64,000 nt of DNA, from NCBI GenBank assembly GCA_000004695.1, contig CM000150.2, forward strand, positions 1-64,000. The letters run 5' to 3'. The translations under genes and the position numbers were made by a program. This stretch comes from Dictyostelium discoideum. Taxonomy: Eukaryota. Below the pieces are notes generated by a model that worked only from the letters and a program-made list of their open reading frames with translations, made no database searches and was not told the DNA's origin. Shown here one piece after another: positions 1,726 to 56,811 of this stretch; within the stretch, counting starts at the first letter, position 1, and each line of letters opens with the position of its first letter.

Positions 1726-1905
1726 TCCCATATTAATTTTTTATATGGACACCCGGCCGCCTGCCCATATTAATTTTTTATATGGCACCTGGCCCTCTGC
1801 CCATATTAATTTTTTATATGGTACCTGGCCCTCTGCCCATATTAATTTTTTATATGGCACCTGGCCCTCTACCCATACTAATTTTTTATATGGCACCTGG
1901 CCCTC
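1726..1905 (+). repeat. 37-bp tandem repeat (gcccatattaattttttatatggcacctggccctct), about 4.7 units, abutting a DIRS-1 fragment
   Basis: Direct reading. The array translates in frame as reiterated MAPGPLPILIFY at the start of ORF 1782..3287. Confidence 0.8.
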
Positions 1906-3403
1906 AGTCGTCTTTCAGAGATGAATCACAAATCATCGACCAGAGTAATCAAGAGTTACAACTGGCAACTGAAGAAGGAAGTGTTCAATCGCATCCAACT
2001 TCAATTCGGTCAAATACAGATGGATCTGTTCGCATCTCACCTCAACCATCAAACGAACAACTATTCAACAATCAGAATGAATGCACTCCACCTCGATTGG
2101 AGTCAATGGAAGCAATGTCTGGCCTTTCCACCACCCATTCTTTTGCCTTCTATCCTGGAGAAGATGAACTCATCCAGTTCGAAGAAGGTTTCTATAATAC
2201 TGATCTTCCCAATCTGGAGATCAGCAACTTGGTATCCGATGATTCAAGCACAAGTTCCTCGTCATCATCGTCACATGTTTCCCCAAGTACTGGGAACATT
2301 CCAAGAAGTATTGACCAAACAATCAGTAGAGTCGATACCAATCCAGATTCAACAACGTTGGAAACTGGGGATTATTCAACTTTCCAATCTCATGTAATGT
2401 CCTTCGCTCGTACAACAAATACAAAAACAGCTGAGCTGTTAATGAAGTCTTGGGAACCTTCCACTCTCAAAGTATATAGCTCCAGTTATACAAGATTCCT
2501 CAATTTCTGTACTTTGAACTCTTTGAATCCAGCAAACATTACCTTAGTTGTTTTCATGGATTATCTTACACATCTGTTCAAACACAAACCTCCGTTAGCC
2601 TTCTCAACAATTAATGGTCATCGCTCTATGTTGAATCAGTTGTTACTCCTTAGGAATCAAACTGATATTGTTAATGATCCATTCATTACAAGAATTATGA
2701 CTGGTATTCACAAATTGCGCCCTTCATCTGCAAAGTATAAAGAGATATGGGATGCAAATCAAGTATTCAAGCACTTATCTACTATCAAAGTTATCCCTAA
2801 GTACACATACACTGCGCTATTAAACAAGACACTTGTACTCTGTAAAATGTTTGGTTTAGCAAGATCATCAGACTTGGTGAAGTGGTCGTTCAAAGGTCTC
2901 ATTATTTCTCTTGACTCAATCAAAGGTCCAGTTATTAATGCTAAAGAACAAAGAAGTGGTGTTGTTTCAGTCTTAGAATTAACTTCGTTAGATGATACTA
3001 ACTCTCAAGTATGCCCTGTTCGCCACCTTGCAACATACCTTAGAGCCTCTAAAGGAAGAAGAAAGCCCCATTCGGGTGACTCTGTCTTTATTAAGAATGA
3101 GGGTGAACCGCTCCAAGTTAATGATATTAACTCAATTGTACTATCAGCACTCTCAAAGTCAGGCATTGATATTGTCAAGTTCAAATCTCACTCTACCCGT
3201 TCCGCTATGGCTTCTCTGCTGTTGTCCAATAACGTTCTATTCCACGTTGTCAAGAAGATGATCGTTGGAAATCAAATGATACTGTAGATACCTTCTACGA
3301 TAAAAGAATCATTGGTGAAAAATCTGGTGGTTTCTTAAATACTGTCGTCCAAATTTCATAATATATATATATATATATGATAATATAAATTAAAAATTTA
3401 TAT
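1906..3403 (+). mobile_element. DIRS-1 copy A: 5'-truncated 3' portion (recombinase C-terminal half plus ICR), no right ITR
   Basis: Near-identical to 6310-7810 of the full copy. Ends in the ICR (3361-3403) and joins directly to the next copy's left ITR. Confidence 0.85.
1913..3287 (+). pseudogene. DIRS-1 tyrosine recombinase ORF, C-terminal half, frameshifted
   Basis: The KFKSHSTRSAMASLL (H..R) box is present. A net 1-bp loss near 3250 turns ...VKKMGRWKSNDTVDTFY into ...KKMIVGNQMIL*, so the catalytic Tyr is lost. Confidence 0.7.
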
Positions 3404-3847
3404 TATCATATATATATATATATTATGAATAACATTTATTTATTTGAATTTCCCAAATATTTAAGATAATTTTTTAGAATGTTCTAGAACATTCGAAGAA
3501 TAAAAAATTTTCGAAAGAAAAGTAAAAATTTCGAACCGGCACAATGACGCGATAATTGCGCAAGGTCGAAAAACTGAAAAATTCCGAACCGACACTATGC
3601 ACAAAGTTGTGAAGGGTCGAAAACTCTTATTTTTTAGAGTTTTGCGAAATTTTTAAGAAAATAAAAACGTATAAATAGTGGCACTAAAAACTAAAACAAT
3701 TTGATTTATTTTATTTGGGAATTCCTCCTATATATATATTTAAGATACACACACATACAAATTTTATACAAATAATTATTTCTCTTTATTAATTTTTAAT
3801 ATTATTATTTTTTCTCATATTATAATTTTAGATATCAACAATAAAAT
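3404..3847 (+). repeat. DIRS-1 left inverted terminal repeat (copy B)
   Basis: Reverse complement present at 7860-8231. The same block recurs at every DIRS copy in the window. Confidence 0.85.
3480..3500. promoter_or_regulatory. Heat-shock-element-like palindrome in the ITR (gTTCtaGAAcaTTCgaag)
   Basis: Three alternating nTTCn/nGAAn pentamers read directly. DIRS-1 ITRs are reported to carry heat-shock promoter elements. The same motif is in every ITR copy (for example 8103-8119). Confidence 0.45.
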
Positions 3848-4855
3848 ATGTCTACCACTGTTAATAATAACGAAGCCTCTAGTAGTAGTACCTCTATCTC
3901 TAATAGCGCTGAATCCTTTGATTTAAGAATGAAATCAATGGAGGATCAAATCAACAACCTTTCTTTAGCCTTTACAAGATTCATGAAAGAACCTATGTTC
4001 TCATCTAATACCAACTCACGTAGCCAACCTTCTCATGATAACTCTGACACTGAGAATGAACAAAGTGAAGATGAATCAAGTAACAATGTCGAAGTTCCAA
4101 CCGATTATCAATTATCCGATACCTTACTTGGTCAGTACAAACATATGGTAAACAATCAAGGTTTACTCGTCGAAGAAGAATGTATCCTCAAGAAAGATGA
4201 GATATCCGAATTGAATAAAGTATTCAACTTTCCATCTAACTTCCAAGTGAATGTCGCTCCATTCGGTACACCTGAAGGTATTACTGTATCATCCAACGTC
4301 AAGAACAATGATACTGACTTGTTGATTGTCGAAAAGCGAATCAACGATAGCTTAAAACCTTTGCTTCTCATATCAAGTATGTTATCATCTGATAGCTCTA
4401 ATGTCGATGTAGAACTTATTAGTTACTTAACTCAGAGTGCAATTGTCTTAGCCGTTAATGCTCAAGCATCGCTTAGTCGTGTCCGTCGTAAAAACATCGC
4501 TAAAGAAATCTATGGTTCTGAAGTACTCTTACCAATTAAGATCAAGGATACACCAAAGATGTTTGATGAAACTGAAACTGAACGTGTAAGAAAGCTAGCC
4601 AAGTCAATCAGAAAGAACAACGAAGCAAAACAATCATTGTTAAAATTGAATTATCATTCCAAGCCCAATGTCAAAAAATTAGTTAACTCAAGTGGTAATA
4701 ACACTACAGGAAACAGTAGTAATAGTAAATCCAGTAGTGGGAGTAATGGCCGATCTAACAACTTCAATGGATCACCAAGTAATGTTGCATCAGGTAGCAA
4801 CAATACCAAGTCTGCCAACGGTACCAACAACCGTTTTCAGAAGAACAAGAAGTAA
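3848..4855 (+). CDS. DIRS-1 ORF1, Gag-like protein (335 aa) with Ser/Asn-rich C-terminus
   Basis: ATG-initiated ORF directly after the left ITR. The same 335-aa ORF is open in copies J and L. Confidence 0.8.
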   Translation: MSTTVNNNEASSSSTSISNSAESFDLRMKSMEDQINNLSLAFTRFMKEPMFSSNTNSRSQPSHDNSDTENEQSEDESSNNVEVPTDYQLSDTLLGQYKHMVNNQGLLVEEECILKKDEISELNKVFNFPSNFQVNVAPFGTPEGITVSSNVKNNDTDLLIVEKRINDSLKPLLLISSMLSSDSSNVDVELISYLTQSAIVLAVNAQASLSRVRRKNIAKEIYGSEVLLPIKIKDTPKMFDETETERVRKLAKSIRKNNEAKQSLLKLNYHSKPNVKKLVNSSGNNTTGNSSNSKSSSGSNGRSNNFNGSPSNVASGSNNTKSANGTNNRFQKNKK

Positions 4856-7769
4856 ACTTACCAGTAGGTGGACGTCTGTTCCACCACAAACAAGTTTGGA
4901 AAGAATTGGGTCTTCCAAACTTTTGTCAAGAGGTCGTAAATGGATTAAAAGTCCATCTACTTCCAAATTTCAAGCCGATGCTAAACCCAATTCCGATTTC
5001 AATTCCAGAGGGTCCGAAATCAGATTGCATCACAAAGGAAGTACAAGACTTGTTATTAGACGATGCCATAGAACAAGTACTTCCAAACCGTTTTTCAAAG
5101 CGCGTTTTTTACTCCAACGTGTTTACGGTTCCAAAACCTGGAACAAATGTACATCGTCCATTTCTAGACTTAAAAAGGTTAAACACTTACATCAACAACC
5201 AATCATTCAAGATGGAAGGAATCAAGAATCTACCATCAATGGTCAAACAAGGTTATTACATGGTAAAACTCGATATCAAGAAAGCTTACCTACACGTGTT
5301 AGTAGATCCACAATACAGAGACTTATTCCGCTTCGTGTGGAAAGGTTCGCACTACCGTTGGAAAACAATGCCGTTCGGGTTATCGACAGCTCCTCGTATC
5401 TTTACAATGCTGTTAAGACCTGTACTTCGAATGTTGAGAGATATCAACGTATCCGTCATCGCTTACTTGGACGATCTATTAATCGTCGGTTCAACAAAAG
5501 AAGAATGTTTATCCAACCTCAAAAAGACAATGGACTTACTTGTCAAACTAGGTTTCAAGTTAAATCTAGAAAAGAGTGTTCTCGAACCAACTCAATCAAT
5601 TACGTTTCTCGGATTACAAATCGATTCGGTATCAATGAAGTTTCTTGTTCCCAAAGAAAAGAAGAAAAGTGTCATCAAGGAAATCAGAAACTTTTTAAAA
5701 CTAGATTGTTGTTCCCCAAGAAAGCTTGCTGGTTTAAAAGGAAAGCTAATCGCACTGAAAGATGCAGTCATCCCATTCAGACTTTACACTCGTCGAACAA
5801 ACAAGTTTCACTCTCAATGTCTGACTCTAGCCAATGGAGATTGGGATCAATCATTCCCCATTCCTCAAGAGGTCAAGTCAGAGATTTCACATTGGTTAAC
5901 AGTTCTAAACCAATGGAATGGAAAAGAAATCAGTCTGTTTCCAAGTTACGACTATGTTCTTACAACCGATGCCTCGGAATCAGGTGCAGGTGCCACTCTC
6001 AAGAAAGGAAACAAGGTAATCAAAACTTGGTCATTCCAGTGGTCAACAACTCAATCAAACATGTCGTCAAATCGTCGAGAAATGCTCGCTCTGCTAATGG
6101 CCTATCAAGCGCTATGTCGGAAACTGAACAACTGCAATCTGAAGATTCAAACCGACAATACTACCACTCTCTCTTACATCAATCGCCAGGGTGGTCAGAT
6201 ACAGGATCTCTCAGTTCTGTTCGAACAACTTTGGAAACAATGCCTCAAGAAGAAAGTGAACTTGATTGGAGAGCATATTCCAGGATTTTTCAATGTAAAA
6301 GCCGACCAACTCAGCCGTCTTTCAGAGATGAATCACAAATCGTCGTCCAGAGTAATCAAGAGTTACAACTGGCAACTGAAAAAGGAAGTGTTCAATCGCA
6401 TACAACTTCAATTCGGTCAAATACAGATGGATCTGTTCGCATCTCACCTCAACCATCAAACGAGCAACTACTCAACAATCAGAATGAATGCACTCCACCT
6501 CGATTGGAGTCAATGGAAGCAATGTCTAGCCTTTCCACCACCCATTCTTTTGCCTTCTATCCTGGAGAAGATGAACTCATCCAGTTCGAAGAAGGTTTCT
6601 ATAATACTGATCTTCCCAATCTGGAGATCAGCAACTTGGTATCCGATGATTCAAGCTCAAGTTCCTCGTCATCATCGTCACATGTTTCCTCAAGTATTGG
6701 GAACATTCCAAGAAGTATTGACCAAACAATCAGTAGAGTCGATACCAATCCAGATTCAACAACGTTGGAAACTGGGGATTATTCAACTTTCCAATCTCAT
6801 GTAATGTCCTTCGCTCGTACAACAAATACAAAAACAGCTGAGCTGTTAATGAAGTCTTGGGAACCTTCCACTCTCAAAGTTTATAGCTCCAGTTATACAA
6901 GATTCCGCAATTTCTGTACTTTGAACTCTTTGAATCCAGCAAACATAACCTTAGTTGTTTTCATGGATTATCTTACACATCTGTTCAAGCACAAACCTCC
7001 GTTAGCCTTCTCAACAATTAACGGTCATCGCTCTATGTTGAATCAGTTGTTACTCCTTAGGAATCAAACTGATATTGTTAATGATCCATTCATCACAAGA
7101 ATTATGACTGGTATTCACAAGTTGCGTCCTTCATCAGCAAAGTATAAAGAGATATGGGATGCAAACCAAGTATTCAAGCACTTATCTACTATCAAAGTTA
7201 TCCCTAAGTACACATACACTGCGCTATTAAACAAGACACTTGTACTCTGTAAAATGTTTGGTTTAGCAAGATCATCAGACTTGGTAAAGTGGTCGTTCAA
7301 AGGTCTCATTATTTCTCTTGACTCAATCAAAGGTCCAGTTATCAATGCTAAAGAACAAAGAAGTGGTGTTGTTTCAATCTTAGAATTAACTTCGTTAGAT
7401 GATACTAACTCTCAAGTATGCCCTGTTCGCCACCTTGCAACATACCTTAGAGCCTCTAAAGGAAGAAGAAAGCCCCATTCGGGTGACTCTGTCTTTATTA
7501 AGAATGAGGGTGAACCGCTCCAAGTTAATGATATTAACTCAATTGTATTATCAACGCTCTCAAAGTCAGGCATTGATATTGTCAAGTTCAAATCTCACTC
7601 TACCCGTTCCGCTATGGCTTCTCTGCTGTTGTCCAATAATGTTCCGTTCCACATTGTCAAGAAGATGGGTCGTTGGAAATCAAACGATACTGTAGATACC
7701 TTCTACGATAAAAGAATCATTGGTGAAAAATCTGGTGGTTTCTTAAATACTGTCGTCCAAATTTCATAA
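4692..7769 (+). CDS. DIRS-1 long ORF (1025 aa) ending in a tyrosine-recombinase domain
   Basis: C-terminal motifs ...CPVRHLATYLRASKGRR..., HSTRS (H..R) and GRWKSNDTVDTFY (catalytic Y). It overlaps the RT ORF in another frame, as in DIRS-type elements. Confidence 0.8.
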   Translation: MVITLQETVVIVNPVVGVMADLTTSMDHQVMLHQVATIPSLPTVPTTVFRRTRSKLTSRWTSVPPQTSLERIGSSKLLSRGRKWIKSPSTSKFQADAKPNSDFNSRGSEIRLHHKGSTRLVIRRCHRTSTSKPFFKARFLLQRVYGSKTWNKCTSSISRLKKVKHLHQQPIIQDGRNQESTINGQTRLLHGKTRYQESLPTRVSRSTIQRLIPLRVERFALPLENNAVRVIDSSSYLYNAVKTCTSNVERYQRIRHRLLGRSINRRFNKRRMFIQPQKDNGLTCQTRFQVKSRKECSRTNSINYVSRITNRFGINEVSCSQRKEEKCHQGNQKLFKTRLLFPKKACWFKRKANRTERCSHPIQTLHSSNKQVSLSMSDSSQWRLGSIIPHSSRGQVRDFTLVNSSKPMEWKRNQSVSKLRLCSYNRCLGIRCRCHSQERKQGNQNLVIPVVNNSIKHVVKSSRNARSANGLSSAMSETEQLQSEDSNRQYYHSLLHQSPGWSDTGSLSSVRTTLETMPQEESELDWRAYSRIFQCKSRPTQPSFRDESQIVVQSNQELQLATEKGSVQSHTTSIRSNTDGSVRISPQPSNEQLLNNQNECTPPRLESMEAMSSLSTTHSFAFYPGEDELIQFEEGFYNTDLPNLEISNLVSDDSSSSSSSSSSHVSSSIGNIPRSIDQTISRVDTNPDSTTLETGDYSTFQSHVMSFARTTNTKTAELLMKSWEPSTLKVYSSSYTRFRNFCTLNSLNPANITLVVFMDYLTHLFKHKPPLAFSTINGHRSMLNQLLLLRNQTDIVNDPFITRIMTGIHKLRPSSAKYKEIWDANQVFKHLSTIKVIPKYTYTALLNKTLVLCKMFGLARSSDLVKWSFKGLIISLDSIKGPVINAKEQRSGVVSILELTSLDDTNSQVCPVRHLATYLRASKGRRKPHSGDSVFIKNEGEPLQVNDINSIVLSTLSKSGIDIVKFKSHSTRSAMASLLLSNNVPFHIVKKMGRWKSNDTVDTFYDKRIIGEKSGGFLNTVVQIS
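4906..6804 (+). CDS. DIRS-1 pol ORF (632 aa): reverse transcriptase, RNase H and methyltransferase-like domains
   Basis: RT motifs PFGLSTAPRIF and YLDDLLIVG, RNase H TDASESGAGA, and DLFAS (methyltransferase-like motif I) near the C-terminus. Confidence 0.85.
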   Translation: MGLPNFCQEVVNGLKVHLLPNFKPMLNPIPISIPEGPKSDCITKEVQDLLLDDAIEQVLPNRFSKRVFYSNVFTVPKPGTNVHRPFLDLKRLNTYINNQSFKMEGIKNLPSMVKQGYYMVKLDIKKAYLHVLVDPQYRDLFRFVWKGSHYRWKTMPFGLSTAPRIFTMLLRPVLRMLRDINVSVIAYLDDLLIVGSTKEECLSNLKKTMDLLVKLGFKLNLEKSVLEPTQSITFLGLQIDSVSMKFLVPKEKKKSVIKEIRNFLKLDCCSPRKLAGLKGKLIALKDAVIPFRLYTRRTNKFHSQCLTLANGDWDQSFPIPQEVKSEISHWLTVLNQWNGKEISLFPSYDYVLTTDASESGAGATLKKGNKVIKTWSFQWSTTQSNMSSNRREMLALLMAYQALCRKLNNCNLKIQTDNTTTLSYINRQGGQIQDLSVLFEQLWKQCLKKKVNLIGEHIPGFFNVKADQLSRLSEMNHKSSSRVIKSYNWQLKKEVFNRIQLQFGQIQMDLFASHLNHQTSNYSTIRMNALHLDWSQWKQCLAFPPPILLPSILEKMNSSSSKKVSIILIFPIWRSATWYPMIQAQVPRHHRHMFPQVLGTFQEVLTKQSVESIPIQIQQRWKLGIIQLSNLM

Positions 7770-8231
7770 TATATATATATATATATGATAATATAAATTA
7801 AAAATTTAATTTATTAAATTATATTTTATATTAAATATATATATATATATTAGTCCCATCCCACCCGCCCTTAGTCGGAATTCCATAAATCAAATTGTTT
7901 TAGTTTTTAGTGCCACTATTTATACGTTTTTATTTTCTTAAAAATTTCGCAAAACTCTAAAAAATAAGAGTTTTCGACCCTTCACAACTTTGTGCATAGT
8001 GTCGGTTCGGAATTTTTCAGTTTTTCGACCTTTCGCAATTATCGCGTCATTGTGCCGGTTCGAAATTTTTACTTTTCTTTCGAAAATTTTTTATTCTTCG
8101 AATGTTCTAGAACATTCTAAAAAAATTATCTTAAATATTTGGGAAATTCAAATAAATAAATGTTATTCATAATATATATATATATATTTAATATAAAAAA
8201 TAATTTAATAAACTAAATTTTTAAATTATAT
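7770..8231 (+). repeat. DIRS-1 right ITR including the ICR (7770-7860)
   Basis: The ICR tcataatatatat...gataatataaattaaaaatttaatttattaaattatatttt matches or complements the outer ITR ends. It is followed by tagtcccatcccacccgcccttagtcggaattcc and then the ITR body. Confidence 0.8.
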
Positions 8232-8347
8232 TTTATCCAACCTCAAAAAGACAATGGACTTACTTGTCAAACTAGGTTTCAAGCTGAATCTAGAAAAGAG
8301 TGTCAACTCAATCAATTACATTTCTCGGATTACAAATCGATTCGGTA
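8232..8347 (+). mobile_element. Short DIRS-1 RT-region fragment (corresponds to about 5506-5640) with a small internal deletion
   Basis: atccaacctcaaaaagacaatggacttacttgtcaaactaggtttcaag... matches the RT ORF. Confidence 0.6.
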
Positions 8348-10035
8348 CTTGAGGAAACATGTGACGATGATGACGAGGAACTTGAGCTTGAATCATCGGA
8401 TACCAAGTTGCTGATCTCCAGATTGGGAAGATCAGTATTATGGAAACCTTCTTCGAACTGGATGAGTTCATCTTCTCCAGGATAGAAGGCAAAAGAATGG
8501 GTGGTGGGAAGGCTAGACATTGCTTCTATTGACTCCAATCGAGGTGGAGTGCATTCATTCTTATTGTTGAGTAGTTGTTCGTTTGATGGTTGAGGTGAGA
8601 TGCGAACAGATCCATCTGTATTTGACCGAATTGAAGTTGGATGCGATTGAACACTTTCTTCTTCAGTTGCCAGTTGTAACTCTTGATTACTCTGGTCGAT
8701 GATTTGTGATTCATATCTGAAAGACGACTGAGGTGGTCGGCTTTTACATTGAAGAATCCTGGAATATGCTCTCCAATCAAGTTCACTTTCTTCTTGAGGC
8801 ATTGTTTCCAAAGTTGTTCGAACAGAACTGAGAGATCTTGTATCTGACCACCCTGGCGATTGATGTAAGAGAGAGTGGTAGTATTGTCGGTTTGAATCTT
8901 CAGCTTGCAGTTGTTCAGTTTCTGACAAAGCGCTTGATAAGCCATTAACAGCGCGAGCATTTCTCGACGATTTGACGACATGTTTGATTGAGTTGTTGAC
9001 CACTGGAATGACCAAGTTTTGATTACCTTGTTTCCTTTCTTGAGAGAGGCACCTGCACCTGATTCTGAGGCATCGGTTGTAAGAACATAGTCGTAACTTG
9101 GAAACAGACTGATTTCTTTTCCATTCCATTGGTTTAGAACTGTTAACACGTTGGAGTAAAAAACGCGCTTTGAATAACGGTTTGGAAGTACTTGTTCGAT
9201 GGCATCGTCTAATAACAAGTCTTGTACTTCCTTTGTGATGCAATCTGATTTCGGACCCTCTGGAATTGAAATCGGAATTGGGTTTAGCATCGGCTTGAAG
9301 TTTGGAAGCAGATGGACTTTTAATCCATTTACGACCTCTTGACAAAAGTTTGGAAGACCCAATTTTTTCCAAACTTGTTTGTGGTGGAACAGACGTCCAC
9401 CTACTGGTAAGTTTACTTCTTGTTCTTCTGAAAACGGTTGTTGGTACCGTTGGCAGACTTGGTATTGTTGCTACCTGATGCAACATTACTTGGTGATCCA
9501 TTGAAGTTGTTAGATCGGCCATTACTCCCACTACTGGATTTACTATTACTACTGTTTCCTGTAGTGTTATTACCACTTGAGTTAACTAATTTCTTGGCAT
9601 TGGGCTTGGAATGATAATTCAATTTTAACAATGATTATTTTGCTTCGTTGTTCTTTCTGATTGACTTGGCTAGCTTTCTTACACGTTCAGTTTCAGTTTC
9701 ATCAAACATCTTTGGTGTATCCTTGATCTTAATTGGTAAGAGTACTTCAGAACCATAGATTTCTTTAGCGATGTTTTTACGACGGACACGACTAAGCGAT
9801 GCTTGAGCATTAACGGCTAAGATGATTGTACTCTGAGTTAAGTAACTAATAAGTTCTACATCGACATTAGAGCTATCAGATGATAACATACTTGACATGA
9901 GAAGCAAAGGTTTCAAGCTATCGTTGATTCGCTTTTCAACAATCAACAAGTCAGTATCATTGTTCTTGACGTTGGATGATACAGTAATACCTTCAGGTGT
10001 ACCGAATGGAGCGACATTCACTTGGAAGTTAGATG
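8348..10035 (-). mobile_element. DIRS-1 fragment (ORF1 3' part through ORF2 5' part) in minus orientation with an internal deletion of about 1 kb
   Basis: Minus-strand ORFs 8308..9576, 8526..9362, 9413..9631 and 9635..10021 match DIRS proteins. A deletion junction is visible (FLLQRV|NSSKPMEWK). Confidence 0.8.
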
Positions 10036-12445
10036 TCTGACTCTAGCCAACGGAGATTGGGATCAATCATTCCCCATTCTCCAAGAGGTCAAGTCAGAGA
10101 TTTCACATTGGTTAACAGTTCTAAACCAATGGAATGGAAAAGAAATCAGTCTGTTTCCAAGTTACGACTATGTTCTTACAACCGATGCCTCGGAATCAGG
10201 TGCAGGTGCCACTCTCAAGAAAGGAAACAAGGTAATCAAAACTTGGTCATTCCAGAGGTCAATAACTCAATCAAACATGTCGTCAAATCGTCGAGAAATG
10301 CTCGCGCTGTTAATGGCTTATCAAGCGCTATGTCGGAAACTGAACAACTGCAAGCTGAAGATTCAAACCGACAACACTACCACTCTCTCATACATCAATC
10401 GCCAGGGTGGTCAAATACAAGATCTCTCAGTTCTGTTCGAACAACTTTGGAAACAATGCCTCAAGAAGAAAGTGAACTTGATTGGAGAGCATATTCCAGG
10501 ATTCTTCAATGTAAAAGCCGACCACCTCAGCCGTCTTTCAGAGATGAATCACAAATCATCGACCAGAGTAATCAAGAGTTACAACTGGCAACTGAAGAAG
10601 GAAGTGTTCAATCGCATACAACTTCAATTCGGTCAAATACAGATGGATCTGTTCGCATCTCACCTCAACCATCAAACGAACAACTATTCAACAATCAGAA
10701 TGAATGCACTCCACCTCGATTGGAGTCAATGGAAGCAATGTCTAGCCTTCCCACCACCCATTCTTTTGCCTTCTATCCTGGAGAAGATGAACTCATACAG
10801 TTCGAAGAAGGTTTCTATAATACTGATCTTCCCAATCTGGAGATCAGCAACTTGGTATCCGATGATTCAAGCACAAGTTCCTCGTCATCATCGTCACATG
10901 TTTCCTCAAGTACTGGGAACATTTCAAGAAGTATTGATCAAACAATCAGTAGAGTCGATACCAATCCAGATTCAACAACGTTGGAAACTGGGGATTATTC
11001 AACTTTCCAATCTCATGTAATGTCCTTCGCTCGTACAACAAATACAAAAACAGCTGAGCTGTTAATGAAGTCTTGGGAACCTTCCACTCTCAAAGTATAT
11101 AGCTCCAGTTATACAAGATTCCTCAATTTCTGTACTTTGAACTCTTTGAATCCAGCAAACATTACCTTAGTTGTTTTCATGGATTATCTTACACATCTTG
11201 TTCAAACACAAACCTCCGTAAGCCTTCTCAACAATTAATGGTCATCGCTCTATGTTGAATCAGTTGTTACTCCTTAGGAATCAAACTGATATTGTTAATG
11301 CTCCATTCATTACAAGAATTATGACTGGTATTCACAAATTGCGCCCTTCATCTGCAAAGTATAAAGAGATATGGGATGCAAATCAAGTATTCAAGCACTT
11401 ATCTACTATCAAAGTTATCCCTAAGTACACATACACTGCGCTATTAAACAAGACACTTGTACTCTGTAAAATGTTTGGTTTAGCAAGATCATCAGACTTG
11501 GTGAAGTGGTCGTTCAAAGGTCTCATTATTTCTCTTGACTCAATCAAAGGTCCAGTTATTAATGCTAAAGAACAAAGAATTGGTGTTGTTTCAATCTTAG
11601 AATTAACTTCGTTAGATGATACTAACTCTCAAGTATGCCCTGTTCGCCACCTTGCAACATACCTTAGAGCTTCTAAAGGAAGAAGAAAGCCCCATTCGGG
11701 TGACTCTGTCTTTATTAAGAATGAGGGTGAACCGCTCCAAGTTAATGATATTAACTCAATTGTACTATCAACACTCTCAAAGTCAGGTATTGATATTGCC
11801 AAGTTCAAATCTCACTCTACCCGTTCCGCTATGGCTTCTCTGCTGTTGTCCAATAACGTTCCGTTCCACTTTGTCAAGAAGATGGGTCGTTGGAAATCAA
11901 ACGATACTGTAGATACCTTCTACGATAAAAGAATCATTGGTGAAAAATCTGGGTTTCTTAAATACTGTCGTCCAAATTTCATAATATATATATATATATA
12001 TGATAATATAAATTAAAAATTTAATTTATTAAATTATATTTTATATTAAATATATATATATATATTAGTCCCATCCCACCAGCCCTTAGTCGGAATTCCA
12101 TAAATCAAATTGTTTTTAGTTTTCAGTGCCACTATTTATACGTTTTTATTTTCTTAAAAATTTCGCAAAACTCAAAAAAATAAGAGTTTTCGACCCTTCA
12201 CAACTTTGTGCATAGTGTCGGTTCGGAATTTTTCAGTTTTTCGACCTTGCGCAATGATCGCGTCATTGTGCCGATTCGAAATTTTTACTTTTCTTTTGAA
12301 AATTTTTTATTCTTCGAATGTTCTAGAACATTCTAAAAAATTATCTTAAATATTTGGGAAATTCAAATAAATAAATGTTATTCATAATATATATATATAT
12401 ATTTAATATAAAATATAATTTAATAAATTAAATTTTTAATTTAAA
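10036..12445 (+). mobile_element. DIRS-1 copy D: 3' part (mid-RT to right ITR), frameshifted
   Basis: Starts abruptly at the RT position (SQCLTLANGDWDQ). There is a frameshift near 11200 (THLVQTQTSVSLLNN*). A complete right ITR lies at 12017-12445. Confidence 0.85.
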
Positions 12446-23291: not shown

Positions 23292-23880
23292 TAAGATAAT
23301 TTTGAAGAAAAAGAATGGTACAGCGGTTCCAAATCTCTTATTTCTTTAATAGTTAAAGCATTGCGTGGTGTTTCTCAAAAGTTCATTGACTCTCCTGATG
23401 AACTTACTTACACTGAAAAGGTTGCTTTTGAATTCACTTCAATACCTCTTTATGCTCCAATAAATTAAATCGTTTAAATAAAAAAAAATTAATATGATTT
23501 CACATACTCAACTTTAATTTTTTCTTTTTTTTTTTAAATCTTTTTTAATTTTTATTTTAAATTATTATTTTTAATTTTTATTTTTAAAGTGATATTATTA
23601 ATATATCTTATCAATTTAACTTTATAATATAAATTTATAAAAGCACTTTTAAATTGAATTTTATAAATATTATTAATAAGAATAATTAATAAGTGTACTT
23701 ATAAAGAGTACATTATAATTATAATTAATAATTACGCTTAATAATTATACTTAATAAGTATACTTAATTAGTATATTTAAAAAGTATACTTTATAATTAT
23801 ACTTATTAAGTACACTTTATAATAGTACTATTTACATTCCTACTTTAAAGATGCTTTAAAGGTTTTTTTTTCGCCCCTGT

Positions 23881-26865
23881 GCAACGGTACCAACAACCGT
23901 TTTCAGAAGAACAAGAAGTAAACTTACCATGGGTGGACGTCTGTTCCACCACAAACAAGTTTGGAAAAAATTGGGTCTTCCAAACTTTTGTCAAGAGGTC
24001 CTAAATGGATTAAAAGTCCATCTACTTCCAAACTTCAAGCCGATGCTAAACCCAATTCCGATTTCAATTCCAGAGGGTCCGAAATCAGATTGCATCACAA
24101 AGGAAGTACAAGACTTGTTATTAGACGATGCCATCGAACAAGTACTTCCAAACCGTTATTCAAAGCGCGTTTTTTACTCCAACGTGTTTACGGTTCCAAA
24201 ACCTGGAACGAATCTACATCGTCCACAATACAGAGACTTATTCCGCTTCGTGTGGAAAGGTTCGCACTACCGTTGGTAAACAATGCCGTTCGGGTTATCG
24301 ACAGCTCCTCGTATCTTTACAATGTTGTTACTTGGACGATCTATTAATCGTCGGTTCAACAAATGAAAAATGTTTAGCCAACCTCAAAAAGACAATGGAC
24401 TTACTTGTCAAACTAGGTTTCAAGTTTAAGCTGGAAAAGAGTGTTCTCGAACCAACTCAATCAATTACATTTCTTGGATTACGAATCGATTCAATATCTA
24501 AGAAGCTTCTTGTTCCCAAAGAAAAGAAAAAAAGTGTCATCAAGGAAATAAGAAACTTTTTAAAACTAGATTGTTGCTCCCCAAGAAAGCTTGCTGGTTT
24601 AAAAGGAAAGCTAATGGCACTGAAAGATGCAGTCATCCCATTCAGACTTTACACTCGTCGAACAAACAAGTTTCACTCTCAGTGTCTAACTTTTAGCCAA
24701 TGGAGATTGGGATCAATCATTCCCCATTCCTCACGAGGTCAGGTCAGAGATTTCGCATTGGTTAACAATTCTAAACCAATGGAAAAGAAATCAGTCTGTT
24801 TCCAAGTTACGACTATGTTCTTACAGTGGTCAACAACTCAATCAAACATGTCATTAAATCGTCGAGAAATGCTCGCGCTGTTAATGGCTTATCAATCGCT
24901 ATGTCGGAAACTGAACAACTGCAAGCTGAAGATTCAAACCGACAACACTACCACTCTTTCTTACATCAATCGCCAGGGTGGTCAGATACAAGATCTCTTA
25001 GTTCTGTTCGAACAACTTTGGAAACAATGCCTCAAGAAGAAAGTGAACTTGATTGGAGAGCCTATTCCAGGATTCTTCAATGTAAAAGCCGACCACCTCG
25101 GCCGTCTTTCAGAAATGAATCACAAATCATCGTTCATAGTAATCAAGAGTTACAACTGGCAACTGAAGAAGGAAGTGTTCAATCGTATCCAACTTCAATT
25201 CGGTCAAATACAGATGGATCTGTTCGCATCTCACCTCAACCATCAAACGACCAACTACTCAACCATCAGAATGAATGCACTCAACCTCGATTGGAGTCAA
25301 TGGAAGCAATGTCTAGCCTTCCCACCACCCATTCTTTTGCCTTCTATCGTGGAGAAGATAAACTCATCCAGTTCGAAGAAGGTTTCTACAATACTGATCT
25401 TCCCAATCTGGAGATCAGCAACTTGGTATCTGATGATTCAAGCACAAGTTCCTCGTCATCATCGTCACATGTTTCCTCAAGTACTGGGAACATTCCAAGA
25501 AGTATTGACCAAACAATCAGTAGAGTCGATACCAATTCAGATTCAACAACGTTGGAAGTTAAGGATTATTCAACTTTCCAATATCATGTAATGTCCTTCG
25601 CTCGTACAACAAATACAAAAACAGCTGAAGTCTTGGGAACCTTCCATTCTCAAAGTATATAGCTCCAGTTATACAAGATTCCGCAATTTTTGTACTTTGA
25701 ACTCTTTGAATCCAGCAAACATTACCTTAGTTGTCTTCTTGGATTATCTTACACATCTGTTCAAGCACAAACCTCCGTTAGCCTTCTCAACAATTAACGG
25801 TCATCGATCTATGTTGAATCAGTTGTTACTCCTTAGGAATCAAACTGATATTGTTAATGATCCATTCATTACAAGAATTATGACTGGTATTCACAAGTTG
25901 CGTCCTTAATCAGTAAAGTATAAAGAGATATGGGATGCAAATCAAGTATTAAAGCACTTATCTACCATCAAAGTCATCCACCAAGTACACATACACTTAT
26001 CTACTATCAAGGTCTCATTATTACTACTGAATCAATCAAAGGTCCGGTTATTAATGCTAAAGAACAAAGAAGTGGTGTTGTTTCAATCTTAGAATTAACT
26101 TCGTTAGATGATAAAAACTCTCAAGTATGTCCTGTTCGCCACCTTGCAACATACCTTAGAGCCTCTAAAGGAAGAAGAAAGCCCCCATTCGGGTAACTCC
26201 GTCTTTATTAAGAATGAGAGTGAACCGCTCCAAGTTAATGATATTAACTCAATTGTACTATCAACACTCTCAAAGTCAGGTATTGATATTGTCAAGTTCA
26301 AATCTCACTCTACCCGTTCCGCTATGGCTTCTCTACTGTTGTCCAATAACGTTCCGTTCCACGTTGTCAAGAAGATGGGTCGTTGGAAATCAAACGATAC
26401 TGTAGATACCTTCTAGGATAAAAGAATCATTGGTGAAAAATCTGGTGGTTTCTTAAATACTGTAGTCCAAATTTCATAATATATATATATATGATAATAT
26501 AAATTAAAAATTTATTAAATTATATTTTATATTAAAAATTAATATATATTATTCCCATCCCACCCGCCCATAGTCGGAATTCCATAAATCAAATTGTTTT
26601 AGTTTTTAGTGCCACTATTTTTATTTTTTTTATTTTCTTAAAAATTTCACAAAACTGTTTTTGCCACTTGGCATAATTATCGCGCCACGTGGAAATTTTT
26701 TACTTTTCTTTCGAAAATTTTTACTTTTCTTTCGAAAATTTTTTTTTCTTCGAATGTTCTAGAACATTCTAAAAAATTATCTTATATATTTGGGAAATTC
26801 TAATAAATAAATGTTATTCATAATATATATATATATATTTTATATAATAAATTAAATTTTTAATT
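23881..26865 (+). mobile_element. DIRS-1 copy F: 5'-truncated at the ORF1 end, heavily degenerate (deletions, stops), partial right ITR
   Basis: Eight short ORFs (23929..26416) all match DIRS proteins in broken frames. The ITR at about 26480-26865 has internal deletions and a duplicated tttcgaaaattttt. Confidence 0.85.
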
Positions 26866-27830
26866 TATGGCTTCACTTTAGCATCTGAGGGAGAAACGTA
26901 ATATTTTTTTATAATATGAAAAGCGTTGGGGCCTTCACAAATAGCAGGTCGATTATACTCTAATTTGCATTGAATGTGGTGCCCAAAACCTACTGGTATG
27001 GGATCGCTCGGTTATCCTTCATGATGTTTTCTGTTCTGGGGTTAATAAGCTGCCTAGCATCCTGATAGGGGGTAGGAATTGACGCTACCTGTTGCGGAGT
27101 TTGGAGGTCAATTTGGACCCGCATCAAATTCAAACATAACTTCGATAGCGATAGATTTAGTTGGTATAGATACACATAAGGTTATGCCAATGTCTGAAGG
27201 AAGTAGGTCGAAAAGTACTCAAAATAGGGTGCTTCCCATAAGCGGTGCAGATAGAGCGCCAATGGTTATTTCCCCATTTTTGTTGATGGTCAATTTGGAT
27301 ATCTTGAAACGGTATCTTCTTCTAGCCATCTAGTACAGGAACGGTGAGTCGATCTATTTGTTGAAAACTTAAAATATAGCAGCGGTTGTTGAAAGTTTGC
27401 TTATGATAATTACGATGTAGGTCCAATATANCTTTATCATAGGCGAGGAGCCAAGTAAAATATTCGATACAAGGCAGATAATGTAGGTCGATGAGAAAGA
27501 TCTTATTGTCCCAATACATGGGGAATTAGTAATTATTGCTTGGCATGTAAATCAACTGAAGTCTCGTCCTAGCTTGGGTTTACAGCCTGTCTATCAATAA
27601 AGCCTTCGAGTCTTGTCAAGGGGTAATGATCAGACAACAAGTCAAATCCTATACTCTATAAGCAGGCTTAGTCTAAGCAAGTAATAAATGAGTTCTTCCC
27701 ATGGACTTATTCGGAACAATGGGTTAATTTTTGTAGTTGTTTATTGAATATAATAAAGGGGATGCCGATCAATAAAGTAACCCAGCTAATAAGTTTAAAC
27801 ACTTCTAGATCTCCTAGGCTAATCGCTTTT
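26866..27830. other. Higher-G+C island I2 of unknown origin (contains one ambiguous base, n at 27431)
   Basis: Composition differs from the flanks. Only short ORFs without recognisable motifs. Bounded by DIRS ITR ends on both sides. Confidence 0.4.
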
Positions 27831-27851
27831 ATATTATCATATATATATATT

Positions 27852-27889
27852 CACAGCAAAGAAAAATCCACCTTTAAAGCAAATTTTAA
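27852..27889. mobile_element. Solo MITE or element X terminus (CACAGCAAAGAAAAATCCACCTTTAAAGCAAATTTTA) inside a DIRS ITR end
   Basis: The 38-bp TIR sequence is flanked on both sides by the ITR end motif attatcatatatatatat. Confidence 0.5.
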
Positions 27890-43179: not shown

Positions 43180-43975
43180 ATCGTTTAAATAAAAAAAATT
43201 AATATGATTTCACATACTCAACTTTAATTTTTTCTTTTTTTTTTAAATCTTTATTTAATTTTTATTTTAAATTTTTATTTTTAATTTTTATTTTTAAAGT
43301 GATATTATTAATATATCTTATTAAGTTAACTTTATAATATAAATTTATAAATGCACTTTTAAATTGAATTTTATAAATATAATTAATAAGAATACTTAAT
43401 AAGTGTACTTATAAAGAGTACATTATAATTATAAATAGTAATTACGCTTAATAAGTATACTTAATAATAATACTTAATAATAATACTTAATAAGTATACT
43501 TATTAAGTATACTTATTAATTTTACTTAATATGTATACTTATTAATTTTACTTAATATGTATACTTAATAATTATACTTAATAAGTATACTAATTAATTA
43601 TACTTAATAATTATACTTAATAATTATACTTAATAAGTATACTTAATAAGTATACTTAATAAGTGTATTTAATAAGTATACTTAATAAGTATACTTTATA
43701 AGTATATTTAATAAGTATACTTAAAAAGTATACTTTATAACTATACTTATTAAGTACACTTTATAATAGTACTATTTACATTCCTACTTTAAAGATGCTT
43801 TTAAGTATTTTTTTTCGCCCCTGTGAAAGGTATAGACAGGGTCATAGGTTCCCCGTCATTTTTTGAAAATGGGGTATATCCCTCTAAATAAATAAATCTA
43901 AAGCTAAATCCTATATTGACTTGCTATATTGCTAAAATTTGAATAAAATGAAAAAAAAAAAAAAAAATCGTAAAA

Positions 43976-51585: not shown

Positions 51586-51987
51586 AAAGAAAAATCCACA
51601 TTTAAAGCAAATTTAAAGCAAAGTTGATTTAAATTGGATTTAAATTGAATTTAAAGCCGGGTTTAAAAAATTCATTTTCAAGGTAATTTTTAAGATAATT
51701 TTAAGATATTTAAAAATGCTTTAAAATTTATTTTAAAATAATTTTAAAGAGGATTTAAAGTTGATTTAAAGTAGATTTAAAGTGAATTAAAATTTCCTTT
51801 AAATATAAATTTAAGGTTTTTAATAAAAAACATCTAATTTTAGATCAAAAAAATGGGGATAAAATATTCTATCATTTTTAAATTATCATCAAAGCAATCA
51901 AATGGTGAAATGGTTGATGAGACTACCCTTTGATTGATGAGACTACCCTTTTGGTAAATTTTCAAAAAATTTAAAAATTTAATTTAT
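51586..51987. mobile_element. MITE fragment (one arm plus a partly deleted tRNA-like core)
   Basis: gtgCAGCAAAGAAAAATCCACATTTAAAGCAAATTTAAAGC...tgatgagactaccctttgat|tgatgagactacccttttggtaa. Confidence 0.65.
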
Positions 51988-52424
51988 TAAATTATATTTT
52001 ATATTAAATATATATATATATATATTATGAATAACATTTATTTATTTGAATTTCCCAAATATTTAAGATAATTTTTTAGAATGTTCTAGAACATTCGAAG
52101 AATAAAAAATTTTCGAAAGAAAAGTAAAAATTTCGAACCGGCACAATGACGCGATCATTGCGACAGGTCGAAAAACTGAAAAATTCCGAACCGACACTAT
52201 GCACAAAGTTGTGAAGGGTCGAAAATACTTATTTTTTTTGAGTTTTGCGAAATTTTTAAGAAAAGAAAAACTTATAAATAGGGCACTAAAAACTAAAACA
52301 ATTTGATTTATGGAATTCCGACTAAGGGCGGGTGGGATGGGACTAATATATATATATATTTAATATAAAATATAATTTAATAAATTAAATTTTTAATTTA
52401 TATTATCATATATATATATATATA

Positions 52425-55400
52425 TTATGAAATTTGGACGACAGTATTTAAGAAACCACCAGATTTTTCACCAATGATTCTCTTATCGTAGAAGGTATCT
52501 ACAGTATCGTTTGATTTCCAACGACCCATCTTCTTGACAACGTGGAACGGAACGTTATTGGACAACAGCAGAGAAGCCATAGCGGAACGGGTAGAGTGAG
52601 ATTTGAACTTGGAAATATCAATACCTGACTTTGAGAGTGTTGATAGTACAATTGAGTTAATATCATTAACTTGGAGTGATTCACCTTCATTCTTAATAAA
52701 GACAGAGTCACCCGAATGGGGCTTTCTTCTTCCTTTAGAGGCTCTAAGGTATGTTGCAAGGTGGCGAACAGGGCATACTTGAGAGTTAGTATCATCTAAA
52801 GATGTTAATTCTAAGATTGAAACAACACCACTTCTTTGTTCTTTAGCATTAATAACTGGACCTTTAATTGAGTCAGGAGTAATAATGAGACCTTTGAACG
52901 ACCACTTCACCAAGTCTGATGATCTTGCTAAACCAAACATTTTACAGAGTACAAGTGTCTTGTTTAATAGCGCAGTGTATGTGTACTTAGGGATAACTTT
53001 GATAGTAGATAAGTGCTTGAATACTTGATTTGCATCCCATATCTCTTTATACTTTGCTGATGAAGGACGCAACTTGTGAATACCAGTCATAATTCTTGTA
53101 ATGAATGGATCATTAACAATATCAGTTTGATTCCTAAGGAGTAATAACTGATTCAACATAGATCGATGACCGTTAATTGTTGAGAAGGCTAACGGAGGTT
53201 TGTGCTTGAACAGATGTGTAAGATAATCCATGAAAACAACTAAGGTAATGTTTGCTGGATTCAAAGAGTTCAAAGTACAGAAATTGCGGAATCTTGTATA
53301 ACTGGAGCTATATACTTTGAGAGTTGAAGGTTCCCAAGACTTCATTAACAGCTCAGCTGTTTTTGTATTTGTTGTACGAGCGAAGGACATTACATGAGAT
53401 TGGAAAGTTGAATAATCCCCAGTTTCCAACGTTGTTGAATCTGGATTGGTATCGACTCTACTGATTGTTTGGTCAATACTTCTTGGAATGTTCCCAGTAC
53501 TTGAGGAAACATGTGACGATGATGACGAGGAACTTGTGCTTGAATCATCGGATACCAAGTTGCTGATCTCCAGATTGGGAAGATCAGTATTATAGAAACC
53601 TTCTTCGAACTGGATGAGTTCATCTTCTCCAGGATAGAAGGCAAAAGAATGGGTGGTGGGAAGGCCAGACATTGCTTCTATTGACTCCAATCGAGGTGGA
53701 GTGCATTCATTCTGATTGTTGAGTAGTTGTTCGTTTGATGGTTGAGGTGAGATGCGAACAGATCCATCTGTATTTGACCGAATTGAAGTTGGATGCGATT
53801 GAACACTTCTTTCTTCAGTTGCCAGTTGTGACTCTTGATTACTCTGGTCGATGATTTGTGATTCATCTCTGAAAGACGACTGAGGTGGTCGGCTTTTACA
53901 TTGAAGAATCCTGGAATATGCTCTCCAATTAAGTTCACTTTCTTCTTGAGGCATTGTTTCCAAAGTTGTTCGAACAGAACTGAGAGATCTTGTATCTGAC
54001 CACCCTGGCGATTGATATAAGAGAGAGTGGTAGTGTTGTCGGTTTGAATCTTCAGCTTGCAGTTGTTCAGTTTCTGACATAGCGCTTGATAGGCCATTAG
54101 CAGTGCGAGCATTTCTCGACGATTTGACGACATGTTTGATTGAGTTGTTGACCACTGGAATGACCAAGTTTTGATTACCTTGTTTCCTTTCTTGAGAGTG
54201 GCACCTGCACCTGATTCCGAGGCATCGGTTGTAAGAACATAGTCGTAACTTGGAAACAGACTGATTTCTTTTCCATTCCATTGGTTTAGAACTGTTAACC
54301 AATGTGAAATCTCTGACTTGACATCTTGAGGAATGGGGAATGATTGATCCCAATCTCCATTGGCTAGAGTCAGACACTGAGAGTGAAACTTGTTTGTTCG
54401 ACGAGTGTAAAGTCTGAATGGGATGACTGCATCTTTCAGTGCGATTAGCTTTCCTTTTAAACCAGCAAGCTTTCTTGGGGAGCAAAAATCTAGTATTAAA
54501 AAGTTTCTTATTTCCTTGATGACACTTTTCTTCTTTTCTTTGGGAACAAGAAGCTTCATTGATACCGAATCGATTTGTAATCCGAGAAACGTAATTGATT
54601 GAGTTGGTTCGAGAACACTCTTTTCTAAGTTTAACTTGAAACCTAGTTTGACAAGTAAGTCCATTGTCTTTTTGAGGTTGGATAAACATTCTTCTTTTGT
54701 TGAACCGACGATTAATAGATCGTCCAAGTAAGCGATGACGGATACGTTGATATCTCTCAACATTCGAAGTACAGGTCTTAACAACATTGTAAAGATACGA
54801 GGAGCTGTCGATAACCCGAACGGCATTGTTTTCCAACGGTAGTGCGAACCTTTCCACACGAAGCGGAATAAGTCTCTGTATTGCGGATCTACTAATACGT
54901 GGAGGTAGGCTTTCTTGATATCGAGTTTTACCATGTAATAACCTTGTTTGACCATTGATGGTAGATTCTTGATTCCTTCCATCTTGAATGATTGGTTGTT
55001 GATGTAAGTGTTTAACCTTTTTAGATCGAGAACTGGACGATGTAGATTCGTTCCAGGTTTTGGAACCGTAAACACGTTGGAGTAAAAAACGCGCTTTGAA
55101 TAACGGTTTGGAAGAACTTGTTCGATAGCATCGTCTGATAACAAGTCTTGTACTTCCTTTGTGATGCAATCTGGACCCTCTGGAATTGAAATCGGAATTG
55201 GGTTTAGCATCGGCTTGAAATTTGGAAGTAGATGGACTTTTAATCCATTTACGACCTCTTGACAAAAGTTTGGAAGACCCAATTCTTTCCAAACTTGTTT
55301 GTGGTGGAACAGACGTCCACCTACTGGTAAGTTTACTTCTTGTTCTTCTGAAAACGGTTGTTGGTACCGTTGGCAGACTTGGTATTGTTGCTACCTGATG

Positions 55401-55520
55401 CAACACTACTTGGTGATCCATTGAAGTTGTTAGATCGGCCATTACTCCCACTACTGGATTTACTATTACTACTGTTTCCTGTAGTGTTAATACCACTTGA
55501 GTTAACTGATTTCTTGACAT
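52425..55520 (-). CDS. DIRS-1 recombinase-containing ORF (1031 aa as called), copy K
   Basis: C-terminal HSTRS...GRWKSNDTVDTFY is present. Confidence 0.7.
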   Translation of the reverse strand: MSRNQLTQVVLTLQETVVIVNPVVGVMADLTTSMDHQVVLHQVATIPSLPTVPTTVFRRTRSKLTSRWTSVPPQTSLERIGSSKLLSRGRKWIKSPSTSKFQADAKPNSDFNSRGSRLHHKGSTRLVIRRCYRTSSSKPLFKARFLLQRVYGSKTWNESTSSSSRSKKVKHLHQQPIIQDGRNQESTINGQTRLLHGKTRYQESLPPRISRSAIQRLIPLRVERFALPLENNAVRVIDSSSYLYNVVKTCTSNVERYQRIRHRLLGRSINRRFNKRRMFIQPQKDNGLTCQTRFQVKLRKECSRTNSINYVSRITNRFGINEASCSQRKEEKCHQGNKKLFNTRFLLPKKACWFKRKANRTERCSHPIQTLHSSNKQVSLSVSDSSQWRLGSIIPHSSRCQVRDFTLVNSSKPMEWKRNQSVSKLRLCSYNRCLGIRCRCHSQERKQGNQNLVIPVVNNSIKHVVKSSRNARTANGLSSAMSETEQLQAEDSNRQHYHSLLYQSPGWSDTRSLSSVRTTLETMPQEESELNWRAYSRILQCKSRPPQSSFRDESQIIDQSNQESQLATEERSVQSHPTSIRSNTDGSVRISPQPSNEQLLNNQNECTPPRLESIEAMSGLPTTHSFAFYPGEDELIQFEEGFYNTDLPNLEISNLVSDDSSTSSSSSSSHVSSSTGNIPRSIDQTISRVDTNPDSTTLETGDYSTFQSHVMSFARTTNTKTAELLMKSWEPSTLKVYSSSYTRFRNFCTLNSLNPANITLVVFMDYLTHLFKHKPPLAFSTINGHRSMLNQLLLLRNQTDIVNDPFITRIMTGIHKLRPSSAKYKEIWDANQVFKHLSTIKVIPKYTYTALLNKTLVLCKMFGLARSSDLVKWSFKGLIITPDSIKGPVINAKEQRSGVVSILELTSLDDTNSQVCPVRHLATYLRASKGRRKPHSGDSVFIKNEGESLQVNDINSIVLSTLSKSGIDISKFKSHSTRSAMASLLLSNNVPFHVVKKMGRWKSNDTVDTFYDKRIIGEKSGGFLNTVVQIS

Positions 55521-56811
55521 TGGGCTTGGAATGATAATTCAATTTTAACAATGATTGTTTTGCTTCGTTGTTCTTTCTGATTGACTTGGCTAGCTTTCTT
55601 ACACGTTCAGTTTCAGTTTCATCAAACATCTTTGGTGTATCCTTGATCTTAATTGGTAAGAGTACTTCAGAACCATAGATTTCTTTAGCGATGTTGTTAC
55701 GACGGACACGACTAAGCGATGCTTGAGCATTAACGGCTAAGACGATTGCACTCTGAGTTAAGTAACTAATAAGTTCTACATCGACATTAGAGCTATCAGA
55801 TGATAACATACTTGACATGAGAAGCAAAGGTTTCAAGCTATCGTTGATTCGCTTTTCGACAATCAACAAGTCAGTATCATTGTTCTTGACGTTGGATGAT
55901 ACAGTAATACCTTCAGGTGTACCGAATGGAGCGACATTCACTTGGAAGTTAGATGGAAAGTTGAATACTTTATTCAATTCGGATATCTCATCTTTCTTGA
56001 GGATACATTCTTCTTCGACAAGTAAACCTTGATTGTTTACCATATGTTTGTACTGACCAAGTAAGGTATCGGATAATTGATAATCGGTTGGAACATCAAC
56101 ATTGTTACTTGATTCATCTTCACTTTGTTCATTCTCGGTGTCAGAGTTATCATGAGAAGGTTGGCTACGTGAGTTGGCACGATTAAGCGATGCTTGAGCA
56201 TTAACGGCTAAGACGATTGCACTCTGAGTTAAGTAACTAATAAGTTCTACATCGACATTAGAGCTATCAGATGATAACATACTTGACATGAGAAGCAAAG
56301 GTTTCAAGCTATCGTTGATTCGCTTTTCGACAATCAACAAGTCAGTATCATTGTTCTTGACGTTGGATGATACAGTAATACCTTCAGGTGTACCGAATGG
56401 AGCGACATTCACTTGGAAGTTAGATGGAAAGTTGAATACTTTATTCAATTCGGATATCTCATCTTTCTTGAGGATACATTCTTCTTCGACAAGTAAACCT
56501 TGATTGTTTACCATATGTTTGTACTGACCAAGTAAGGTATCGGATAATTGATAATCGGTTGGAACATCAACATTGTTACTTGATTCATCTTCACTTTGTT
56601 CATTCTCGGTGTCAGAGTTATCATGAGAAGGTTGGCTACGTGAGTTGGTATTAGAAGAGAACATAGGTTCTTTCATGAATCTTGTAAAGGCTAAGGAAAG
56701 GTTGTTGATTTGATCCTCCATTGATTTCATTCTTAAATCAAAGGATTCAGCGCTTTTAGAGGCAGAGGTACTACTACTAGAGGTATCATTATTATTAACA
56801 GTGGTAGACAT
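55333..56811 (-). CDS. DIRS-1 ORF1 with internal in-frame duplication (492 aa)
   Basis: ...AQASLNR|ANSRSQPSHDNSDTENEQ... repeats the block NSRSQPSHD...AQASL. Confidence 0.7.
   Translation of the reverse strand: MSTTVNNNDTSSSSTSASKSAESFDLRMKSMEDQINNLSLAFTRFMKEPMFSSNTNSRSQPSHDNSDTENEQSEDESSNNVDVPTDYQLSDTLLGQYKHMVNNQGLLVEEECILKKDEISELNKVFNFPSNFQVNVAPFGTPEGITVSSNVKNNDTDLLIVEKRINDSLKPLLLMSSMLSSDSSNVDVELISYLTQSAIVLAVNAQASLNRANSRSQPSHDNSDTENEQSEDESSNNVDVPTDYQLSDTLLGQYKHMVNNQGLLVEEECILKKDEISELNKVFNFPSNFQVNVAPFGTPEGITVSSNVKNNDTDLLIVEKRINDSLKPLLLMSSMLSSDSSNVDVELISYLTQSAIVLAVNAQASLSRVRRNNIAKEIYGSEVLLPIKIKDTPKMFDETETERVRKLAKSIRKNNEAKQSLLKLNYHSKPNVKKSVNSSGINTTGNSSNSKSSSGSNGRSNNFNGSPSSVASGSNNTKSANGTNNRFQKNKK

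Follow-up and report, generated by a model that had tools for sequence, protein, structure and literature searches.

Insertion of the retrotransposon DIRS-1 of Dictyostelium discoideum into other copies of DIRS-1 has been known since 1984 (Cappello, Cohen & Lodish, as cited in PMC7192593 and PMC5633606), and the centromeric DIRS clusters of this organism have been described (Glöckner & Heidel 2009, PMC2665215). The literature consulted, including PMC2665215, states that no specific target of this self-targeting has been defined at the sequence level. For DIRS1-like elements, integration is modelled as a crossover within 3 bp (NTT, usually ATT) that are common to the circle junction and the target, without target-site duplication (Goodwin & Poulter; Piednoël et al. 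2011, PMC3266345). The replication model of Cappello 1985, as summarised in PMC7192593, concerns the internal complementary region (ICR) and the circle junction, with the ICR acting as splint or template.

The sequence compared here with these systems (‘the window', the whole stretch analysed, 64,000 nucleotides, positions 1 to 64,000 of contig CM000150.2 in assembly GCA_000004695.1) is a cluster of DIRS-1 retrotransposons on chromosome 1 of D. discoideum AX4. When mapped by BLAST against one complete copy, denoted B, the window resolves into four full-length copies and many fragments, with AT-rich non-DIRS repeats between them. The copies that bear on the argument, with reference positions from this map, are:

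1903-3395, + strand: copy A, a 5'-truncated host DIRS-1 (reference ~2914 to the ICR)
3396-8223, + strand: copy B, a complete DIRS-1 of 4828 bp
3396-3428, + strand: left terminus of copy B, the left ITR extending to ~3720
3848-4855, + strand: GAG of copy B (DDB_G0267180)
4906-6804, + strand: RT/RH/MT ORF of copy B, the YR ORF ending at 7769
~7764-7851, + strand: canonical ICR of copy B itself, with the right ITR at 7885-8223
51972-57225, - strand: copy K, joined to the truncated copy L at 57224/57225
57224-61517, - strand: copy L, with a complete left terminus (61517-61487), 3'-truncated at reference ~4298
61518-62255, - strand: copy M, a 5'-truncated host DIRS-1 (reference ~3674 to the ICR)

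Copy B is arranged as published (left ITR, GAG, RT/RH/MT and YR ORFs that overlap, ICR, ~30-bp spacer, right ITR), and its GAG matches DDB_G0267180 of AX4 with 100% identity. Its ITRs, its GAG, RT-RH-MT and YR ORFs and the complementarity of its ICR to the two termini place it in DIRS-1. In copy B, each half of the ICR is reverse-complementary to one end of the element, the left half (lICR) to the left terminus and the right half (rICR) to the right terminus. Read on the opposite strand, the entire ICR therefore equals the right terminus followed by the left terminus, i.e. the circle junction of the Cappello model, with which the element agrees in this respect.

The YR ORF of copy A is frameshifted, and a stop codon precedes the lICR. 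The 5' truncations of both hosts, A and M, abut non-DIRS repeats (1727-1905; 62314-62483, also found at 23673-23822 and 43373-43766; 62510-62653), namely a 36-bp tandem repeat (4.9 copies), a 13-bp repeat (TATACTTAATAAG) and a 53-bp repeat resembling a tRNA T arm; no tRNA genes were called by ARAGORN in the window. At 27830-27885, a 23-nt fragment of a left terminus (ttttatattatcatatatatatatt) lies ~45 nt upstream of the full copy that starts at 27885, the own terminus of which is a variant (tttaaattatc).

At two places, in opposite orientations, one copy passes directly into the next:

3356-3390, + strand: lICR of copy A, followed by an rICR stub of only 5 nt (taaaa, 3391-3395)
3395/3396, + strand: break between the ICR of copy A and base 1 of the left terminus of copy B
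3396-3398, + strand: ATT at the A-to-B crossover, being both the first three bases of the left terminus of B and an ATT of the canonical ICR (taaaaATTtaattt; six canonical ICRs compared)
61564-61532, - strand: lICR of copy M, followed by a 14-nt rICR stub (taaaaatttaattt, 61531-61518)
61518/61517, - strand: break between the ICR of copy M and base 1 of the left terminus of copy L

With a slash marking the break, the first junction reads ...gataatataaat-taaaa/ATTtatattatc and the second ...gataatataaat-taaaaatttaattt/ATTtatattatc; the left terminus of B, ‘ATTTATATTATC...', begins at 3396 and runs on through the left ITR to GAG. The canonical ICR is ...taaaaATTtaatttATTaaatt..., and both breaks fall on an ATT within it, copy L sitting at the ICR ATT within aatttaatttATTaaatt. 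Each of the six remaining ICRs of the window continues into a ~30-bp spacer (‘tagtcccatccc...') and then into the right ITR; neither a spacer nor a right ITR is present in the sequence between A and B or between M and L. An earlier note on this DNA had reported junctions of this kind near 3361-3404 (+ strand) and 61511-61540 (- strand) and the absence of the upstream copy's right ITR between head-to-tail copies, and both observations hold. Its further statement that the same type of junction occurs twice is correct as to the recurrence, although the breakpoints are not identical but lie 9 nt apart. Length variation of the slippage type is found in the same stretch of ATTTA repeats in which both junctions lie: the ICR at 26474-26560, in a degraded copy (23882-26852), is short of 5 core nucleotides (taaaaatttattaaatt instead of taaaaatttaatttattaaatt).

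The two junctions are probably the left junctions of DIRS-1 copies nested, in the same orientation, at an ATT of the ICR core of a resident copy. Copies B and L begin at the normal first base of the element, and an ICR ATT lies at exactly both break positions; breaks of the ICR on ATT, combined with inserted copies that start with ATT, are the signature of the published ATT-crossover model. Following the published replication model, the substrate would be a double-stranded circle produced from cDNA with the ICR as splint, and the tyrosine recombinase of the element would join this circle, by a 3-bp crossover, to an ATT in the ICR of resident copy A or M, so that a complete DIRS-1 would be integrated in the orientation of its host. 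The distal ICR, the spacer and the right ITR of each host would at first have lain beyond the inserted copy (B or L); unrelated deletions or rearrangements probably removed the host right ITRs afterwards.

The comparison set, collected from three other D. discoideum assemblies with GAG homologues as bait, consisted of 11 DIRS loci and L002, a short contig of a sequencing run. One of these loci (L008; long-read assembly GCA_054859355.1, contig JBTAPG010000116.1) contains an intact DIRS-1 insertion in an ICR with both junctions present. On the left, the ICR of the older copy (‘...taaaaatttaatttattaaattat') is followed by ATT and the new copy (9599 to ~14321), the ICR-to-left-ITR join being at a third ATT; on the right, the right terminus of the new copy is followed by ATT, the remainder of the ICR (‘taatattaaatat...'), the spacer (‘tagtcccatcccacccgccc...') and the right ITR of the host. 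The host right ITR in this intact insertion was therefore displaced to the far side and not removed by the joining mechanism. At both window junctions, as at this locus, the element starts at its first base (ATT) and the target has an ATT at that point.

Insertions at other positions of the element follow the same pattern. In locus L001, one copy (Z) lies inside another (Y) at reference 3966, with ATT or AT at both junctions, and Y in turn lies inside a third copy (X) at 2464/2495, where 30 nt of the target were lost between two ATTs. Locus L004 has insertions at reference 3253 and, inverted, at 3409, and locus L005 has one at reference 3788, all of them flanked by ATT or AT at either end. L008, L001, L004 and L005 show a complete reciprocal right junction, in which ATT follows the right terminus and the same target then resumes, and the clean external insertions are free of target-site duplication.

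In L009, the ICR of a copy P is continuous, at 11567-11654 (- strand), with the inverted right ITR of an internally deleted copy Q, and the left ITR of Q, at 9545-9600 (+ strand), combines a terminus of the right type with an inner part of the left type and GAG; at both joins, a complete rICR passes directly into an ITR in ‘left' orientation (...tattaa(at)n/tatgaataacattt). Both joins fit either recombination between the 55-nt inverted repeats of rICR and right terminus or flipping between ITRs. In L003 (at 9592) and L004 (at 6644), which come from different strains and contigs, left termini abut inverted DIRS sequence at nearly the same position of the host (‘...ggaca/tttatatt', at the ATG of ‘MSFARTTNT...'), mapped to reference ~3448 and 3409, respectively; the mapped positions differ because the host copy in L003 is divergent. 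These two abutments either go back to one old event common to both loci or mark a second site of recurrence.

The far sides of B and L are less well preserved than these examples, and a full reciprocal right junction is found at neither. Downstream of B lies one short element:

8224-8236, + strand: 13-nt distal rICR remnant (AATTATATTTTAT) in the orientation of copy A, abutting the right terminus of copy B (8223)

The 13-mer occurs 10 more times in the window, always in an ICR or a right terminus, with 0.06 chance matches expected in the whole window, and its position next to B supports nested insertion. Its last 5 nt are shared with the start of the next DIRS fragment (reference ~2108-2235), which leaves only 7-8 nt that belong to the ICR without ambiguity. 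After the remnant comes an unrelated DIRS fragment. The incomplete far sides count against nested insertion, as does the right junction of B, which is AAT and not ATT; to explain this side, insertion of B would require a loss of ~13 nt of target and a later truncation of A, and the 30-nt target loss in L001 parallels that of ~13 nt inferred for B. The right end of L is truncated (reference 4298), with loss of the right junction. The join of L to K leads from reference 4298 to 34 with microhomology of only ‘ta' (57214-57237), and K, which starts at reference base 34, is devoid of exactly the 33-nt left terminus that pairs with the lICR; this join is a secondary rearrangement that removed the right junction of L. 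Copy K also contains a 471-bp internal tandem duplication (55707-56648, two copies 99% identical, reference ~615-1085).

Read as nested insertions, the A-B and M-L pairs are two further cases, in the published centromeric cluster, of a known process. They resemble the described self-insertions in that a complete DIRS-1 lies in another one, in the centromeric cluster of AX4 chromosome 1, with the host fragmented; what sets them apart is that the ICR core is the target, with two cases in the window and a further one in another strain. The 3-bp crossover model is matched by the copies that start with ATT, by the target ATT at the break and by the clean examples without duplication, whereas in some events a target stretch of 13-30 nt between two ATTs is missing (L001 and, probably, B) and several right junctions in AX4 are AAT or AAC instead of ATT. 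Among the flanks of genuine right termini, ATT comes first in ~16 of 22 in the long-read loci, compared with AAT or AAC in four of five in the AX4 window. The difference from the Cappello 1985 model concerns the role of the ICR, which appears here as a passive chromosomal integration target, not as a splint or template, the observed junction not being the circle junction. The earlier note had proposed integration of products of the circular replication intermediate, with the ICR templating the joining of the termini; integration of a circle-derived product is retained in the present interpretation, and the templating is dropped, the ICR being read simply as the target.

The strongest competitor, although itself unlikely, is a deletion from a canonical head-to-tail dimer (...ICR-spacer-right ITR/left ITR...), in which the ~430 bp between the ICR ATT and the circle-junction ATT would have been lost through the action of the recombinase in cis or through microhomology. 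Microhomology is indeed present at both junctions (ATTTA at A to B, ATT at M to L), the right breakpoint coincides exactly with the first base of the left terminus, which is what a site-specific event would give, and the reciprocal right junction is complete in neither window case. The postulated precursor, a right terminus followed by a left terminus and left ITR, is found at none of the 27 true right ends that occur in ~300 kb (window plus fetched loci), and no circle-junction join occurs in the window or in the 11 DIRS loci from other assemblies. Furthermore, A and B differ at 18 of 625 positions and M and L at 12 of 625 (1.9-2.9%), as random pairs of copies do, so these neighbours are not sister copies, unlike copies made together; that their divergence is no lower than that of random pairs argues against concatemers or tandem duplication. 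A true concatemeric array, with near-identical units joined through right and left termini, was not encountered. Neither the distal-ICR 13-mer after B nor the intact insertion in L008 is predicted by the deletion of a dimer.

An error of assembly, with reads mis-joined through the ICR/ITR complementarity or inside near-identical DIRS copies, is quite improbable. The centromere of AX4 chromosome 1 was reconstructed manually from short-insert Sanger clones (PMC2665215), the window has gaps (N at 1-100, 27431 and 44613), and its DIRS mosaics are more scrambled than those of the long-read loci. Moreover, a comparison with GCA_054883475.1 gave no locus in synteny with the window, the matches being confined to near-identical DIRS interiors. 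Collapse via the 88-nt identity between ICR and circle junction, however, would yield a complete ICR running into an ITR (‘...tattaa(at)n/tatgaataacattt') and not a 5- or 14-nt rICR stub set on base 1, the two junctions are unlike each other, and a junction of the same type is present in an independent long-read assembly (L008). The interior of B, given the manual Sanger reconstruction, could be a chimeric join of two copies.

Aberrant reverse transcription is a very remote prospect. Template switching or ICR-primed over-extension would produce concatemeric cDNA that is integrated as a unit, and the ICR does serve as the template in terminus restoration and is essential for retrotransposition (PMC7192593). 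A minus-strand 3' end extended on the ICR would, however, place the right terminus (aaattaaattttta) before the left terminus, and the reverse complement of this sequence is what is observed; the transcript is devoid of the left terminus (PMC7192593), and the 2-3% divergence of adjacent copies again does not fit. ICR-templated models worked through on paper (minus-strand 3' over-extension, snap-back priming and RNA template switching) were rejected, as they predict either the right-terminus sequence, not its reverse complement, or long inverted duplications, neither of which is seen. Recombination in register between the circle junction and the ICR core, which is quasi-palindromic, was rejected as well: the joins are offset by -5 and +4 nt and are better explained by a simple ATT crossover.

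Homologous recombination between the ICR and the terminus of the left ITR, which the earlier note based on a shared segment of about 60 bp, can be discarded for practical purposes: the relationship between the ICR half and the left terminus extends over 33-35 nt only and is one of reverse complements, so that recombination would invert the intervening DNA and leave hybrid repeats, whereas both repeats are intact, adjacent and retained as a palindrome with flanks collinear head to tail, and the ICR and the left terminus have no homology in direct orientation that would be long enough to be of use.

Under nested insertion, a palindrome is left at each junction, because the lICR of the host is the reverse complement of the left terminus of the incoming copy:

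3355-3429: palindrome of the lICR of A and the left terminus of B, 100% complementary
61486-61565: palindrome of the lICR of M and the left terminus of L, 97-100% complementary, its arms separated by a 14-nt spacer

The DNA fold energies are -24 (A to B) and -21.9 (M to L) kcal/mol, with z = -9.0 and -7.8, respectively. Each ICR insertion of this type would thus create a perfect palindrome with arms of 33-35 bp, a potentially fragile structure, and these palindromes could contribute to the secondary rearrangements that adjoin both junctions.

The possibility that the ICR core is a preferred landing site, or pseudo-attachment site, for the DIRS-1 recombinase is put forward tentatively, and it is doubtful on present counts. 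The core (ATAAATTAAA-AA-TTTAATTTAT) is a near-perfect palindrome of 22 nt that mirrors the circle junction and therefore resembles the circle junction, or recombinase substrate, in either orientation; judged from this sequence, a preference for integration is plausible. Among the 17 distinct left junctions of DIRS-in-DIRS insertions mapped in the window and in loci L001-L012, three lie in the ICR core (reference 4408, 4417 and 4427), or four if an ambiguous junction in L009 (-19984; reference 4417) is counted, where 18 nt of ICR-like sequence precede the left terminus and an inverted insertion in a real right terminus is equally possible. All these three to four core hits (reference 4408-4427) are in the orientation of the host. 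In the whole set, 12 of the 17 insertions have the host orientation (P = 0.02 against the ATT:AAT ratio of the element, 0.07 against 50:50). The 40-nt core makes up 0.8% of the element and holds 10 of its 309 ATT/AAT sites. The enrichment in the core has P = 1e-5 to 4e-4 by length and P = 0.002 to 0.016 by share of ATT/AAT sites, values that include as two of the core hits the very junctions that prompted the finding; in the independent loci alone, 1-2 of 14 junctions are in the core (P = 0.07-0.37 by site share). Given the ATT density and this ascertainment, the clustering in the ICR core is only suggestive. The ICR preference is the sole point that is possibly new, nested insertion itself being known.

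For the DIRS clusters, the implication is that ‘tandems' devoid of a right ITR can be read as insertion junctions followed by later decay, with no special fusion mechanism. If true, a hotspot in the ICR core would provide a sequence-level basis for the self-targeting of DIRS-1 and the growth of centromeric clusters and, once confirmed, it would bear on the growth of the centromeres of D. discoideum.
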